A stretch of DNA of 64,000 nucleotides, from positions 13,042-77,041 of IMG/VR virus record IMGVR_UViG_3300032283_000551; one strand, 5' to 3'. Under the pieces are notes generated by a model that was given only the letters and a program-made list of their open reading frames with translations, did no database searches and was not told the DNA's origin. The DNA comes from a virus (Duplodnaviria; Caudoviricetes). A program made the translations under genes and the position numbers. Shown here in pieces: positions 48,569-52,177 of this stretch (the stretch's first letter is position 1; each line of letters begins with the position of its first letter).

Positions 48569-48653
48569 GCGGGCTTGGTGAAATGGTAGACACAAGAGAC
48601 TTAAAATCTCTCGGCTAAAAGCTGTACCGGTTCGAGTCCGGTAGCCCGCACCA
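48569..48653 (+). tRNA. tRNA-Leu(TAA)
   Basis: Cloverleaf, AGAGA-CTTAAAA-TCTCT, variable arm, CCA. Confidence 0.95.
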
Positions 48654-48696
48654 ACTACCTAAGATTAAAAATTACTAAATGTTAATACTTTTTTGG

Positions 48697-48725
48697 TTGA
48701 CAGACATTCAAATCTATGGTATAAT
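48697..48725 (+). promoter_or_regulatory. Early promoter for the tRNA array
   Basis: TTTTGG-TTGACA-N17-TATAAT. Confidence 0.85.
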
Positions 48726-48744
48726 CCACATATAAACAAATTGA

Positions 48745-48819
48745 GGATCCTTAGTTCAGCGGTAGAACACCGGACTTTTAATCCGTATGCCCTGGGTTCA
48801 AATCCCAGAGGATCCTCCA
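48745..48819 (+). tRNA. tRNA-Lys(TTT)
   Basis: Loop CTTTTAA, T-arm CTGGG-TTCAAAT-CCCAG, U73, CCA. Confidence 0.9.
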
Positions 48820-48852
48820 TTTGTTTGACCTTTATTATGAAAGATATATATT

Positions 48853-49032
48853 ATGTCGGAAGATTATAGGATTCAATTTTTGGATAATTCAGGTTGGCGT
48901 ACTTGTGTTACCTTTACTTCCCGAGCCGATGGTGCTATGGTAATGAGGGAAATGCAACAAGCCCAGGTGTATTATCCGGAATACCGAATTCGATGTGTTG
49001 ACCACAATGATCGACTGATTGATATGCTATAA
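48853..49032 (+). CDS. Small hypothetical protein (59 aa) inside the tRNA array
   Basis: MSEDYRIQFLDNSGWRT...RCVDHNDRLIDML; fills the spacer exactly. Confidence 0.55.
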   Translation: MSEDYRIQFLDNSGWRTCVTFTSRADGAMVMREMQQAQVYYPEYRIRCVDHNDRLIDML

Positions 49033-49035
49033 ATA
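49028..49035 (+). promoter_or_regulatory. Late promoter in tRNA array
   Basis: TATAAATA 7 nt before tRNA-Trp. Confidence 0.7.
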
Positions 49036-49042
49036 AGTCTGT

Positions 49043-49116
49043 GTCGGTGAAGTGTTATGGTAGCACGTAAGTCTCCAAAACTTGAGGCGAGGGTTCGACT
49101 CCTTCCACCGATGCCA
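49043..49116 (+). tRNA. tRNA-Trp(CCA)
   Basis: Loop CTCCAAA, G73, CCA. Confidence 0.95.
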
Positions 49117-49125
49117 ATAAGTTTA

Positions 49126-49203
49126 GGGCCAGTCTTCTAATTGGACTAGGAATCCAGATTTTCAATCTGTTCAATGCGGGTTCGAGTCCCGTCTGGCCTA
49201 CCA
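49126..49203 (+). tRNA. tRNA-Glu(TTC)
   Basis: Loop TTTTCAA, T-arm GCGGG-TTCGAGT-CCCGT, CCA. Confidence 0.9.
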
Positions 49204-49231
49204 AGTTTTCTGTTGTTTGACAATTTGAATG

Positions 49232-49239
49232 TATAAATA
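49232..49239 (+). promoter_or_regulatory. Late promoter consensus in tRNA array
   Basis: TATAAATA, but only 1 nt before tRNA-Lys(CTT), so it may serve the downstream tRNAs. Confidence 0.5.
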
Positions 49240-49240
49240 A

Positions 49241-49312
49241 GAACGGGTAGCTCAGAGGAAGAGCGGATGCCTCTTAAGCATCGGGTCGAGATTTCGAAAT
49301 TCTCCCTGTTCA
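49241..49312 (+). tRNA. tRNA-Lys(CTT), CCA not encoded
   Basis: GATGC-CTCTTAA-GCATC; acceptor GAACGGG/CCTGTTC. Confidence 0.85.
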
Positions 49313-49317
49313 TATTT

Positions 49318-49392
49318 GGATCCTTGGTCGAGTGGCTTAGGCAGAGGTCTGCAAAACCTTTTACAGTGGTTCAATTCCACTAGGATCCTCCA
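49318..49392 (+). tRNA. tRNA-Cys(GCA)
   Basis: Loop CTGCAAA, U73, CCA. Confidence 0.95.
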
Positions 49393-49398
49393 GAGTTT

Positions 49399-49473
49399 TG
49401 GTTAGTAGCTCAATGGTAGAGCAGGTGACTGTTAATCACCCGGTTACAGGTTCGAGTCCTGTCTAGCCAGCCA
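49399..49473 (+). tRNA. tRNA-Asn(GTT)
   Basis: GGTGA-CTGTTAA-TCACC, G73, CCA. Confidence 0.95.
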
Positions 49474-49596
49474 GGTCGCACAAAAACTGTTCCTATCCGG
49501 TTTTGTGCATTTTGTAGATAGGATACGCTCTTACTGTCTGGGGGTAAGAGAAGAGATAAACTTGCTATTGAAATCAATGGTGGGTTAGCCCAGACC
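49474..49596 (+). ncRNA. Candidate structured RNA with two pseudoknots
   Basis: GCACAAAA/TTTTGTGC with loop TCCTATC pairing GATAGGA; CTCTTAC/GTAAGAG with loop GTCTGGG pairing CCCAGAC. Confidence 0.6.
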
Positions 49597-49602
49597 AAAT
49601 TT

Positions 49603-49678
49603 GCTTCCTTAGCTCAGCTGGTAGAGCATTCGGTTGATAACCGAAAGGTCGATGGGTCGGGACCATCAGGAAGCACCA
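49603..49678 (+). tRNA. tRNA-Ile(GAT) with atypical T-loop
   Basis: TTCGG-TTGATAA-CCGAA; T-loop GTCGGGA; CCA. Confidence 0.85.
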
Positions 49679-49683
49679 AGTTT

Positions 49684-49758
49684 GCCGGATTAGCACAGCG
49701 GTAGTGCAATCGCCTTGTAAGCGATAGGTCGGGAGTTCAATCCTCTCATCCGGCACCA
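49684..49758 (+). tRNA. tRNA-Thr(TGT)
   Basis: ATCGC-CTTGTAA-GCGAT, CCA. Confidence 0.95.
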
Positions 49759-49764
49759 TATTTT

Positions 49765-49854
49765 GGACGTGACATCGGGTGATGACAAGGGCCTTATATT
49801 CCCTTTGCAGCTGATTACTGCTTGGATAGGATTCGAATTCCTACACGTCTACCA
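49765..49854 (+). tRNA. Non-canonical tRNA-like RNA (possible TAT anticodon, or tmRNA-TLD-like)
   Basis: Acceptor GGACGTG/CACGTCT-A-CCA, T-arm TAGGA-TTCGAAT-TCCTA, mini D-arm CATC-GGGT-GATG, AAGGG/CCCTT arm, extra GCAG/CTGC arm. Confidence 0.6.
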
Positions 49855-49857
49855 AAC

Positions 49858-49954
49858 TCAAAGACTACCAGGATTAAATGGGCTCTCCTGGTTCAAGATG
49901 ACTGCTAGTAAAACTGATAACCCCACCCATGGTTTGCAGGGCTCTGGTCTTTGA
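49858..49954 (+). ncRNA. Candidate structured RNA after the tRNA-like element
   Basis: Closing stem TCAAAGACT/GGTCTTTGA, hairpin ACCAGGA/TCCTGGT, possible ATGGG/CCCAT loop-loop pairing. Confidence 0.55.
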
Positions 49955-49962
49955 TACTTTTT

Positions 49963-50036
49963 GCGGGATTAGTATAATGGTATTATCACAGCCTTCCAAG
50001 CTGAGGACAGGGGTTCGATTCCCCTATCCCGCTCCA
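49963..50036 (+). tRNA. tRNA-Gly(TCC)
   Basis: Loop CTTCCAA, U73, CCA. Confidence 0.95.
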
Positions 50037-50042
50037 TTATTA

Positions 50043-50168
50043 AGTGTTAGACATGCGTAATGACCTACGGCTGGTCATCCCGGGAAACTGGGTTGCATCT
50101 TTGATTTGGGAAGAATCCGGATTCGACCCAAAATATCAATGATGTGGGTTCGAATCCCGCTAACACTT
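50043..50168 (+). ncRNA. tRNA-like RNA without an anticodon loop
   Basis: Acceptor AGTGTTA/TAACACT, canonical T-arm GTGGG-TTCGAAT-CCCGC, branched 5' domain and long bulged arm. Confidence 0.7.
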
Positions 50169-50179
50169 AACATTATTAT

Positions 50180-50252
50180 AGCAGAGAGGATTGGTATCCC
50201 ATCTAGGCTCATAACCTAGACCACGGTTGTTCGATTCAACCCTCTGTTACCA
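50180..50252 (+). tRNA. tRNA(CAT), Met/fMet-like, non-canonical D-arm
   Basis: AGCAGAG/CTCTGTT-A-CCA; GGAT-TGGT-ATCC; 6-bp stem TCTAGG-CTCATAA-CCTAGA. Confidence 0.75.
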
Positions 50253-50256
50253 CTAT

Positions 50257-50325
50257 GGCGCTAGAACAGGTGTTCCGGTCGATCTCATAAGTCGACTTGT
50301 GTTGGATCGTTACCAACTAGCGCCT
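50257..50325 (+). tRNA. tRNA(CAT), non-canonical D- and T-arms, no CCA (Met or Ile2)
   Basis: GGCGCTA/TAGCGCC; GAAC-AGGT-GTTC; 6-bp stem GTCGAT-CTCATAA-GTCGAC; T-loop ATCGTTA. Confidence 0.6.
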
Positions 50326-50333
50326 TATAAATA
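50326..50333 (+). promoter_or_regulatory. Late promoter in tRNA array
   Basis: TATAAATA upstream of tRNA-Ser(TGA). Confidence 0.7.
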
Positions 50334-50345
50334 AGTTACTAATAT

Positions 50346-50436
50346 GGATAGGTGGCCGAGTGGTTGAAGGCTCTAGTCTTGAAAACTAGCGAGGGTTAAG
50401 AGCCCTCCGTGGGTTCGAATCCCACCCTATCCTCCA
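50346..50436 (+). tRNA. tRNA-Ser(TGA)
   Basis: CTAGT-CTTGAAA-ACTAG, long variable arm, CCA. Confidence 0.95.
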
Positions 50437-50444
50437 GTTTATTT

Positions 50445-50534
50445 GGAATGGTGGCCGAGTGGTTTAAGGCTGCGGTTTACTAAACCGCCGAGGGTTTATC
50501 CCCTCCGTGGGTTCGAATCCCACCTATTCCTCCA
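50445..50534 (+). tRNA. tRNA-Ser(ACT)
   Basis: GCGGT-TTACTAA-ACCGC, long variable arm, scaffold near-identical to tRNA-Ser(TGA), CCA. Confidence 0.9.
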
Positions 50535-50557
50535 GTTTTATAAAAAGGATATAAAAC

Positions 50558-50722
50558 ATGTCTGGTTACTCTATTGATGTCTTTAAAAAAGCGGCATTTA
50601 ATCATGAACTAGATAATGTATTATCATCTGAAGAACTAAAACAAAAGTTAGGATCCAACCACACTATATTGGTTTCCTATCTTAAAGAACGTGTTAAAGA
50701 GATAGATAAACAATACAGTTAA
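50558..50722 (+). CDS. Small hypothetical protein (54 aa) inside the tRNA array
   Basis: AAGGA RBS; MSGYSIDVFKKAAFNHELD... Confidence 0.6.
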   Translation: MSGYSIDVFKKAAFNHELDNVLSSEELKQKLGSNHTILVSYLKERVKEIDKQYS

Positions 50723-50799
50723 CAGGGAATAGCTCAATCTGGTAGAGCGCTGCGTTTGGGACGCAAAGGTTGCAGGTTCGATTCCTGTTTCCCTGACCA
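50723..50799 (+). tRNA. tRNA-Pro(TGG)
   Basis: Loop TTTGGGA, C1-G72, A73, CCA. Confidence 0.95.
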
Positions 50800-50803
50800 T
50801 TTT

Positions 50804-50879
50804 GGGAGGTTAGCTCAGTTGGTAGAGCGTCACGTTTACACCGTGAATGTCATCGGTTCAAACCCGGTACCTCCTACCA
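50804..50879 (+). tRNA. tRNA-Val(TAC)
   Basis: TCACG-TTTACAC-CGTGA, CCA. Confidence 0.95.
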
Positions 50880-50886
50880 TTTTTAT

Positions 50887-50960
50887 TGCCTGATAGTTTA
50901 ACGGTAGAACGCCGGTTTTTGGTGCCGGCTGTGTTGGTTCAAATCCAGCTCGGGCATCCA
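50887..50960 (+). tRNA. tRNA-Gln(TTG)
   Basis: CCGGT-TTTTGGT-GCCGG, U1-A72, CCA. Confidence 0.92.
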
Positions 50961-50965
50961 TTTTA

Positions 50966-51041
50966 GCCACCTTGGTATAGCTGGTGCGTACATACGCCTG
51001 AAGAGCGTGGGGACTCTGTTCAATTCAGAGAGGTGGCACCA
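50966..51041 (+). tRNA. tRNA-Phe(GAA)
   Basis: TACGC-CTGAAGA-GCGTG, CCA. Confidence 0.92.
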
Positions 51042-51045
51042 TTTT

Positions 51046-51122
51046 GTTGCATTAGCTCAACTGGATAGAGCATCAGCCTACGAAGCTGAGGGTTAGGAGT
51101 TCAACTCTCTTATGCAACACCA
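51046..51122 (+). tRNA. tRNA-Arg(ACG)
   Basis: TCAGC-CTACGAA-GCTGA, CCA. Confidence 0.95.
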
Positions 51123-51127
51123 TTTAC

Positions 51128-51201
51128 GCGCGTGTGACGGAATTGGCATACGTACTGGTCTTAGAAACCAGGTTTTGGGGGTTCAAGTCCCTCCATGCGC
51201 A
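51128..51201 (+). tRNA. tRNA-Leu(TAG), short variable region, no CCA
   Basis: CTGGT-CTTAGAA-ACCAG; only GTTTT before the T-arm. Confidence 0.85.
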
Positions 51202-51208
51202 TTATTAC

Positions 51209-51284
51209 GGTGGTAGTAGCTCAAAGGCAGAGCGTTGGTTTGTGGAGCCAAATGTTGCGGTTTCAAGATCCGTCTATCACCCCA
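51209..51284 (+). tRNA. tRNA-His(GTG) with G-1:C73
   Basis: Loop TTGTGGA; G-GTGGTAG/CTATCAC-C-CCA. Confidence 0.9.
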
Positions 51285-51286
51285 AT

Positions 51287-51361
51287 GGGCTTCTAGTGCT
51301 AGCGGTAACACGTCGCCTTTGCACGGCGAAATTCGGGGTTCGACTCCCCGGAGGTCCACCA
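51287..51361 (+). tRNA. tRNA-Ala(TGC)
   Basis: G3.U70, loop TTTGCAC, CCA. Confidence 0.95.
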
Positions 51362-51366
51362 TTTTT

Positions 51367-51455
51367 GGGAGAGCTGCTCGGACGGCGGACGGGCACTGGT
51401 CTGTAAAACCAGCACTTAAGAAACGGAGTTGGTTCGAATCCATCCTCTCCCACCA
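51367..51455 (+). tRNA. tRNA-Tyr(GTA)
   Basis: CTGGT-CTGTAAA-ACCAG, variable arm, CCA. Confidence 0.92.
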
Positions 51456-51461
51456 CTTCAC

Positions 51462-51535
51462 GGCCGTATAGTTTAATGGTAGAACGTTTGCCTGTCTAGC
51501 AACTCGCCGGGGTTCGATTCCCCGTATGGTCGCCA
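51462..51535 (+). tRNA. tRNA-Asp(GTC)
   Basis: Loop CTGTCTA, G73, CCA. Confidence 0.92.
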
Positions 51536-52106: not shown

Positions 52107-52136
52107 AAAGGCAGGGCAAAAACCCTGCCTTTTTTT
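52107..52136 (+). terminator. Rho-independent terminator
   Basis: GGCAGGG-CAAAAA-CCCTGCC then T7. Confidence 0.9.
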
Positions 52137-52148
52137 ATGAGAAAATGG

Positions 52149-52177
52149 TTGACAAACCACCTAGAGTATGATATAAT
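52149..52177 (+). promoter_or_regulatory. Early promoter
   Basis: GG-TTGACA-N17-TATAAT. Confidence 0.85.

Follow-up and report, generated by a model that had tools for sequence, protein, structure and literature searches.

A conserved RNA of tandem H-type pseudoknots between tRNA genes of an uncultured T4-like phage

The DNA analyzed here is a 64,000-nucleotide stretch (the window) of a 77-kb IMG/VR record (IMGVR_UViG_3300032283_000551), estimated to be 46% complete, from an uncultured freshwater T4-like phage. The phage carries T4-type genes for terminase, sheath, major head protein, a UvsW-type helicase, clamp loader, DNA polymerase and a gp41-type helicase, and its head protein is 63–70% identical to those of Stenotrophomonas phage DLP6, the Sinorhizobium phiM12 group, Methylophilales phage Melnitz and cyanophages. 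Twenty-three tRNA genes occupy positions 48569–51535 on the + strand. A promoter-like site stands upstream of the tRNA run that bears the element described below (Table 1); no terminator-like site was found between this site and the element, and the first strong + strand terminator, whose hairpin is bidirectional, lies past the array at 52107–52132. A second 12/12 sigma-70 promoter-like site with a TG extension is present at 52149–52177, and the two sites bracket the tRNA array. The array also contains two further long gaps without a tRNA call, 49759–49962 (204 nt) and 50037–50179 (143 nt), the latter holding only a sub-threshold match to an Rfam tmRNA family (50116–50161, 18.8 bits against a gathering score of 47), and ARAGORN reports a tRNA-Ser with the unusual anticodon ACT at 50445–50534, adjoining tRNA-Ser(TGA).

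Between tRNA-Asn(GTT) and tRNA-Ile(GAT) the ARAGORN calls leave a spacer of 129 nt. An earlier reading of the sequence alone had proposed that an RNA element starts at the base after the tRNA-Asn CCA and fills the space between the two tRNAs, and the tRNA calls bear this out: tRNA-Asn ends in CCA at 49473 and tRNA-Ile runs from 49603, so that the element begins with the very next base and occupies the spacer, on the same strand as the tRNAs. Direct inspection of the sequence likewise recovered four perfect helices of 7–8 bp where that reading had placed them; the stem of the 5′ pseudoknot (PK1) joins GCACAAAA to TTTTGTGC by perfect Watson–Crick pairing. The third hairpin (P3) does exist, but it is larger than had been described, with 12 bp. 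In homologous loci the linker after CCA is 3–5 nt long and mainly A/U-rich. A coding role for the spacer was rejected because the sole open reading frame is a 62-codon minus-strand frame that overlaps tRNA-Asn, and because the length of P3 varies by non-multiples of three.

Table 1. Positions of the element, its parts and its neighbors in the window.
Feature	Position	Strand	Basis and remarks
Sigma-70-type promoter-like site, TTGACA-17 nt-TATAAT, TG-extended	48697..48725	+	12/12 match; upstream of element-bearing tRNA run
tRNA-Asn(GTT), encoded CCA	49399..49473	+	ARAGORN; Rfam tRNA 70.3 bits; 5′ neighbor of element
Linker GGUC, 4 nt, CCA to first helix	49474..49477	+	Sequence read
PK1 (5′ pseudoknot) hairpin	49478..49508	+	Stem 49478–85/49501–08; loop strand TCCTATC 49491–97
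PK1 3′ strand GATAGGA	49517..49523	+	Pairs with loop 49491–97, perfect
UACG, PK1-to-core joint, nearly invariant	49524..49527	+	Alignments A2, A4
Core hairpin S1	49528..49550	+	CTCTTAC 49528–34 with GTAAGAG 49544–50, perfect
S1 loop: U, then S2 5′ strand GTCTGGG, then G	U49535; G49536 to G49542; G49543	+	
Junction strand AAGAGAU(A), base of S1 to P3, invariant	49551..49558	+	Alignments A2, A4
P3 hairpin, 12 bp, loop AAAU	49559..49586	+	Stem 49559–70/49575–86; basal pairs A-U, R-U, C-G
AG, P3 to S2 3′ strand, invariant	49587..49588	+	Alignments
S2 3′ strand CCCAGAC and invariant C49596	49589..49596	+	49589–95 pairs with 49536–42
A/U-rich trailer AAAUUU ahead of next tRNA	49597..49602	+	Sequence read
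tRNA-Ile(GAT), 3′ neighbor	49603..49678	+	ARAGORN

The sequence-only reading had classed the element as an unannotated noncoding RNA, and no Rfam 15 family was matched in 49474–49602 at E values up to 10, nor at eight homologous loci at E values up to 5. Two further identities were considered and dismissed: ARAGORN found no tmRNA, one-piece or permuted, in the window and no Rfam tmRNA model matched 49474–49602, while the tandem direct repeats of a pseudoknot unit of about 34–45 nt that mark a type III antitoxin (ToxI-like) or a phage pseudo-ToxI are not seen, as the covariance model of the family (R1, see below) matches only once in the whole 77-kb record, the window included. Comparison of the fold with shuffled controls, a check that the earlier reading had called for, showed the arrangement to be rare. 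The nested minimum free energy is −38.9 kcal/mol (z = −2.89), at least four perfect helices of at least 7 bp arose in 0.06% of 5000 dinucleotide shuffles of the spacer, and at least two H-type pseudoknot arrangements, in which a hairpin loop pairs downstream, arose in 0.12% of 5000 such shuffles. A lone 7-bp loop-to-tail helix like that of PK1 was non-significant in the shuffle test (p about 0.15); since one such helix is not rare by itself, the case rests on covariation in homologues.

The first homologues were reached through the neighboring clamp-loader gene, which gave three spacers, each directly 3′ of tRNA-Asn(GTT) and each followed by a different tRNA. Three conserved blocks from the alignment of these spacers were made into scan patterns over public collections (four patterns on viral contigs, one on metagenome contigs and one on species genomes), and the matches were filtered with R1. 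Scans and model together yielded 83 loci with 51 unique sequences in phage contigs of lake and other metagenomes, counts from which divergent members are probably missing because discovery went by pattern. Matches at L107/L110, L150, L157, L159, L161, L163, L165, L173, L175 and L176 were discarded as false positives, being coding or without S1/S2 pairing. When 50,697 phage records were searched with the spacer by BLASTN, none matched, a result that says little since the method is too insensitive for an 80-nt core.

Covariation in related phages, on which the sequence-only reading had made its proposal depend, is evident: both pseudoknots and the third hairpin keep compensatory changes across dozens of homologues. 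In the first core alignment (41 unique sequences), 99.7% of the S1 and S2 pairs are standard, against 32–44% when the 3′ partners are slid, and 8 of the 14 pairs have changed on both sides; the model-based alignment (49 distinct rows) gave 98.5% against 29–41%. The covariation score of the latter is 0.436, compared with 0.185 in shuffles, none of 500 of which matched it, and over the core alignments the score is 0.44–0.52, compared with 0.19–0.20. S1 (7 bp) is 99.4% paired with five of its seven pairs changed on both sides, and its stem was predicted independently by RNAalifold, while S2 is 100% paired in 47–48 unique sequences, with 4–5 pair types at each of the three middle pairs of its seven. 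A P3 hairpin that leaves the following AG free was found in 37 of 38 distinct segments of 27–45 nt, and the L162 type shows a compensated change in which GUUAG becomes GAUAG and AAAC becomes AAUC. The strand is fixed by G-U pairs, which would be C-A mismatches on the other strand: G22–U35 is G-U in 38 of 48 sequences, and P3 of the window has four such pairs.

PK1 has no sequence in common with the core pseudoknot, and its form recurs in the subtypes with differing sequences: the loop of a hairpin is paired to the stretch immediately 5′ of UACG. Its loop helix is 96.4% paired in type A (8 sequences; 3/7 pairs changed on both sides) and the equivalent helix 94.4% paired in type B (4/8 changed), where 16 sequences keep 97% of the whole structure paired and 12 of the 22 pairs have changed on both sides. 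L091, L113, L147 and L129 retain the PK1 stem in a different sequence. An additional hairpin occurs in some subtypes, either 5′ or within loop 3, and in several loci without a neighboring tRNA PK1 could not be traced. Together, these data show that the spacer encodes a real, conserved RNA made of two tandem H-type pseudoknots, the 3′ one being the conserved core. The family is phage-only and about 125–160 nt long, with a core of 80 nt. The view that the spacer is functionless, a product of chance complementarity or the remnant of a decayed tRNA, could appeal to the fact that a lone loop-to-tail helix is not rare in one sequence and to decayed tRNAs in arrays, such as the L025 spacer; it retains next to no probability, refuted as it is by covariation of every helix in 47–51 unique sequences from unrelated contexts, and contradicted by invariant junction bases and the absence of a tRNA-model match.

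Conservation is concentrated in the 3′ half, which comprises UACG, the 7 bp of S1, a 9-nt loop of which 7 nt pair with the 3′ end, AAGAGAU, P3 and AG. At the junction some 25 bases do not vary; in the stems, changes accumulate in compensating pairs, and PK1 is kept in shape, not in sequence. The invariant set consists of UACG (nearly so, the exceptions being GAUG in L134 and UACA in L147), U24, G25, GGG-G-GU, AAGAGAU, the A-R-C/G-U-U base of P3, AG, CCC and the final C-C. Scans in which the 3′ block, the GGGGGU block or the AAGAGAU block was left free recovered the same members, with no variants except one compensated GAUAG, thus indicating that the invariance is no by-product of the search patterns. 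The geometry would be that of a classical H-type pseudoknot, with one U crossing the deep groove of the 7-bp S2, one G between the stems and an 8-nt purine-rich strand running along the minor groove of the 7-bp S1. By Pleij's rules both crossings are sterically sound, that of the 7-bp S2 by a 1-nt L1 and that of the 7-bp S1 by an 8-nt strand. Because only AG joins P3 to S2, P3 must project from the S1/S2 junction, so that the invariant bases cluster round a three-way junction.

The genomic neighborhood of the family is steady on one side only. tRNA-Asn(GTT) is the 5′ neighbor in 33 of the 36 unique loci with an upstream tRNA, whereas the 3′ neighbor changes (Val(TAC) in 16, Ile(GAT) in 13, and also Thr, Asp and Met), which suggests that tRNA-Asn and the element are passed on together, and perhaps also used together; a pairing or motif that would account for the link was not found. 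The element is present in only 3 of 80 related clamp-loader loci, eight of which carry tRNA-Asn without it, some with a remnant or another insert in its place, and it is absent from the five closest cultured phages. This sporadic occurrence means that it is dispensable, and no gene was found to co-occur with it across all contexts. In the related phages L024 (11808–11910) and L062 (15585–15655), tRNA-Asn is followed directly by a short stretch whose last bases are GGTTAGCCCAC or GGTTAGACCAC, and then by a Shine–Dalgarno (SD) sequence and genes for small Gly/Tyr-rich proteins with signal-peptide-like starts; this stretch could be what is left of the element, or else another kind of leader. In L025 (8563–8650) the spacer of 88 nt that follows tRNA-Asn resembles a decayed tRNA that ARAGORN does not call, with a T arm, GTGGGTTCGAGTCCCAT, and the paired strands ACTAATCG/CGATTAGT.

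We favor, with a probability of about one half, the explanation that the element is a stable RNA freed by tRNA processing, sealed at both ends and acting in trans by binding a partner. It would be transcribed together with the tRNAs from the promoter-like site at 48697–48725, and its 5′ end would be freed during 3′ processing of tRNA-Asn by cleavage in the short linker past CCA. RNase P, acting at the 5′ end of the next tRNA (tRNA-Ile in the window), would make the 3′ end, and exonucleases would then trim the A/U trailer back to the pseudoknot helix and the invariant CC. RNase T does not pass CC. With both ends buried in structure, such an RNA should be stable. Judged from sequence, release by tRNA processing would fit the anatomy of the array, where element and tRNAs appear to share one transcription unit and where, across array members, the element lies 0–5 nt past CCA and is followed by a trailer of 5–8 nt before the next tRNA. 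The invariant junction could then serve as a specific pocket that binds a protein, of the host or of the phage, or else a small ligand, with ties to tRNA or translation metabolism, and we propose with low confidence that the RNA may function in trans during infection through this junction. Counting against this reading are the loci without an upstream tRNA described next, the sporadic occurrence of the element, and a base invariance that is equally typical of ribozymes, riboswitch aptamers and protein-binding RNAs.

Eleven unique loci have no upstream tRNA. There the core lies among small same-strand ORFs with PHROG matches, in a phage-like context, and one of these loci is on a 92-kb contig binned with a Candidatus Angelobacter MAG. 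The presence of the core in phages without a tRNA nearby means that tRNA processing is not the sole route of biogenesis. In a soil group of four close members, on tRNA-less metagenome contigs, conservation begins at a promoter-like TTGCCT-17 nt-TTAAAT just upstream (read by eye from alignment A6) and stops exactly after the last invariant C, which marks a 3′ boundary. Two side features were noted in tRNA-less members. A conserved ORF of about 100 aa, which starts MAYWNFGYRN, has a Ser/Gly-rich tail and is without family assignment, lies 20–200 nt past the core in L131 (242–547), L149 (3057–3350) and L135 (− strand), and a second small hairpin of the form GTGTGG...CCACAC stands within 20–30 nt 3′ of the core in L126, L151, L142 and L158, which have no neighboring tRNA.

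These loci speak for a cis-acting role, in which the element would not be active as a free RNA but would work on its own transcript as an exonuclease block, a guide for RNase E or RNase P, a put-like antiterminator or a means of tuning translation. Besides its place in tRNA arrays, the core is found in other phages within 5′ leaders or between genes, the soil group combines an upstream promoter-like site with conservation that ends at the 3′ end of the core, and in L131 and the L162 type an SD and ATG follow 8–10 nt past the core, an arrangement that suits a cis role at least as well as a free RNA. The SD, however, lies outside both pseudoknot strands, no terminator or alternative pairing that could act as an expression platform was seen, the next gene in arrays is a tRNA of varying identity, and about 25 invariant unpaired bases far exceed the needs of a nuclease roadblock; we regard a purely cis-acting element as unlikely.

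A further, rather tentative proposal places an active site or a ligand pocket at the invariant three-way pseudoknot junction, which would belong either to a new class of small ribozyme or to a released aptamer or sponge. A self-cleaving ribozyme that helps to cut the tRNA precursor has a precedent in theta ribozymes, a minimal HDV-like type that abuts phage tRNAs at their 3′ end (Kienbeck et al. 2024, PMC10879173). The likeness lies in a pseudoknotted RNA right after a phage tRNA and in the helix order, since S1a-S2a-S1b-P3-S2b equals HDV P1-P2-P1′-P4-P2′ once HDV P3/L3 is left out, and an invariant junction core is typical of small ribozymes. The sequence-only reading had already held that the strand order does not suit an HDV or theta fold, a judgment that the alignments uphold. 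There is no room for HDV P3/L3 and P1.1: a single G (49543) leads from the S2 5′ strand to the S1 3′ strand, and PK1 offers 3 nt (49498–500). At the junction from P3 to the S2 3′ strand, equivalent to HDV J4/2, the catalytic C of the first position is replaced by the invariant AG. Theta cleavage falls within ±5 nt of the tRNA 3′ end, and 95% of theta-linked tRNAs lack an encoded CCA (PMC10879173), whereas here the core starts 54 nt past CCA in the window and 50–230 nt past the tRNA end elsewhere, behind a variable domain, and the tRNAs encode CCA. Theta ribozymes also belong to gut phages, the present family to lake and soil phages. Identity with HDV or theta ribozymes is thus ruled out by the missing P3/L3 and P1.1, the AG junction, the distant core, the encoded CCA and the lack of a match to the Rfam HDV family. 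A new ribozyme class is in our view improbable, given that no known class is recognized by Rfam or by the defining HDV features and that RNase P and RNase E already explain both ends.

About as improbable is a small-molecule aptamer at the S1/S2/P3 junction that would act as a riboswitch before an ORF and as a sponge when freed from an array. In topology the core resembles the preQ1-II riboswitch, an H-type pseudoknot that stacks its two stems, runs a strand rich in purines alongside stem 1 and embeds a hairpin in loop 3; in both, this additional hairpin immediately precedes the 3′ strand of the pseudoknot. Neither the junction nor the purine-rich crossing strand varies in the family, and some members stand 8–10 nt ahead of an SD. 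Here, in contrast to preQ1-II, no Rfam family matches, the SD is unsequestered and most members precede a tRNA rather than an ORF. The known pseudoknot riboswitches (preQ1-I/II/III, SAM-II/V, fluoride, guanidine-III and others) were rejected on the absence of an Rfam match and of a terminator and on the position of the SD, 8–10 nt beyond S2. An expression platform is lacking, and the downstream genes are mutually unrelated (tRNAs, a 70-aa ORF and the ORF starting MAYWNFGYRN). We know of no small-molecule RNA sponge. If the aptamer version were true, phages would release an RNA from tRNA precursors to sponge a host metabolite or an immune signaling nucleotide.

The core might instead be a tRNA-like structure of the TYMV type, with S1 and S2 as a mimic of acceptor and T arm that ends in CCA and is seen by tRNA enzymes, an idea we consider very improbable. 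In most members the S2 3′ strand is followed by C-A and so reads ...C-C-A, and in L134 a tRNA-like sequence, reduced to its 5′ half, precedes the core. The first C of this CCA is, however, paired (G-C in 47 of 47), which leaves only a CA overhang without a discriminator base, and although most rows have A next to CC, several have U or G there. The stack has 14–15 layers (7+1+7) rather than 12, P3 exits from its middle and not from its end, and the Rfam Tymo_tRNA-like and tRNA models find no match at the element. The L134 locus (442–562, − strand) has GAUG in place of UACG and no 5′ pseudoknot, and its tRNA-like part consists of the acceptor strand, D arm and anticodon arm with CCA. A weak tRNA-model hit of 21 bits at this locus, which would make the core part of a tRNA, was rejected because it takes one strand of P3 as the partner of the tRNA-like 5′ strand; since P3 is intact there, L134 is read as a fusion of the core with a truncated tRNA.

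For fifty years the T4 tRNA cluster has been known to contain stable RNAs whose function is unknown. The T4 annotation gives species 1 and 2 as rnaC (139 nt) and rnaD (119 nt), and the present element, as a stable RNA released from an array, would resemble them as a small structured RNA within or after tRNA genes, on the tRNA strand of a T4-type phage and presumably excised by tRNA-processing enzymes. In contrast to the H-type pseudoknots described here, a tRNA-type T arm is part of rnaC, and the last bases of rnaD are CCA. A search of T4 68000–76000 with R1, filters off, gave at best 9.6 bits (E 0.18), and 8.4 bits (E 0.44) at rnaC/rnaD. Homology to rnaC/rnaD was therefore rejected: the setting is common to both, whereas sequence and fold are not.

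The proposed formation of the 3′ end also has a parallel. In MALAT1 and MEN-beta, the 3′ end is made by RNase P at a downstream tRNA-like mascRNA and is protected in a triple helix. The likeness concerns the inferred step only, an RNase P-made 3′ end tucked into a higher-order helix nearby; those RNAs are eukaryotic, use a U-A-U triple helix with an A-rich tail rather than an H-type pseudoknot, and have no sequence relation to the element.

GOLLD and ROOL are large phage RNAs of unknown function that are often found near tRNA islands (PMC12286853). Like GOLLD, the present RNA is phage-encoded, lies beside tRNAs and joins a conserved 3′ region to a variable 5′ region; unlike GOLLD and ROOL, it shows no sign of oligomer formation, and it is five to six times smaller. 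The Rfam models of GOLLD, ROOL and manA find no match at the element or at the eight homologous loci.

As a kind, structured passenger RNAs in phage tRNA islands are known from T4 species 1/2, GOLLD, ROOL and theta ribozymes (PMC12286853, PMC10879173). The family itself, its tandem H-type architecture and its invariant core appear undescribed, although about 8,500 unnamed candidate RNAs from IMG/VR (PMC10690425) may list the motif; a literal search for the invariant blocks in the research literature returned primers only. With a core of 80 nt, an unambiguous, covariation-backed pseudoknot and about 25 invariant bases, the RNA is of a size that suits in-line probing, crystallography and screens for ribozyme activity or ligands. 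The near-fixed link to tRNA-Asn and the occurrence in phages without neighboring tRNAs provide two natural contexts in which to study how a passenger RNA functions. GOLLD, ROOL and theta ribozymes mark phage tRNA islands as a reservoir of unusual RNAs, to which the present family adds a small and tractable case.
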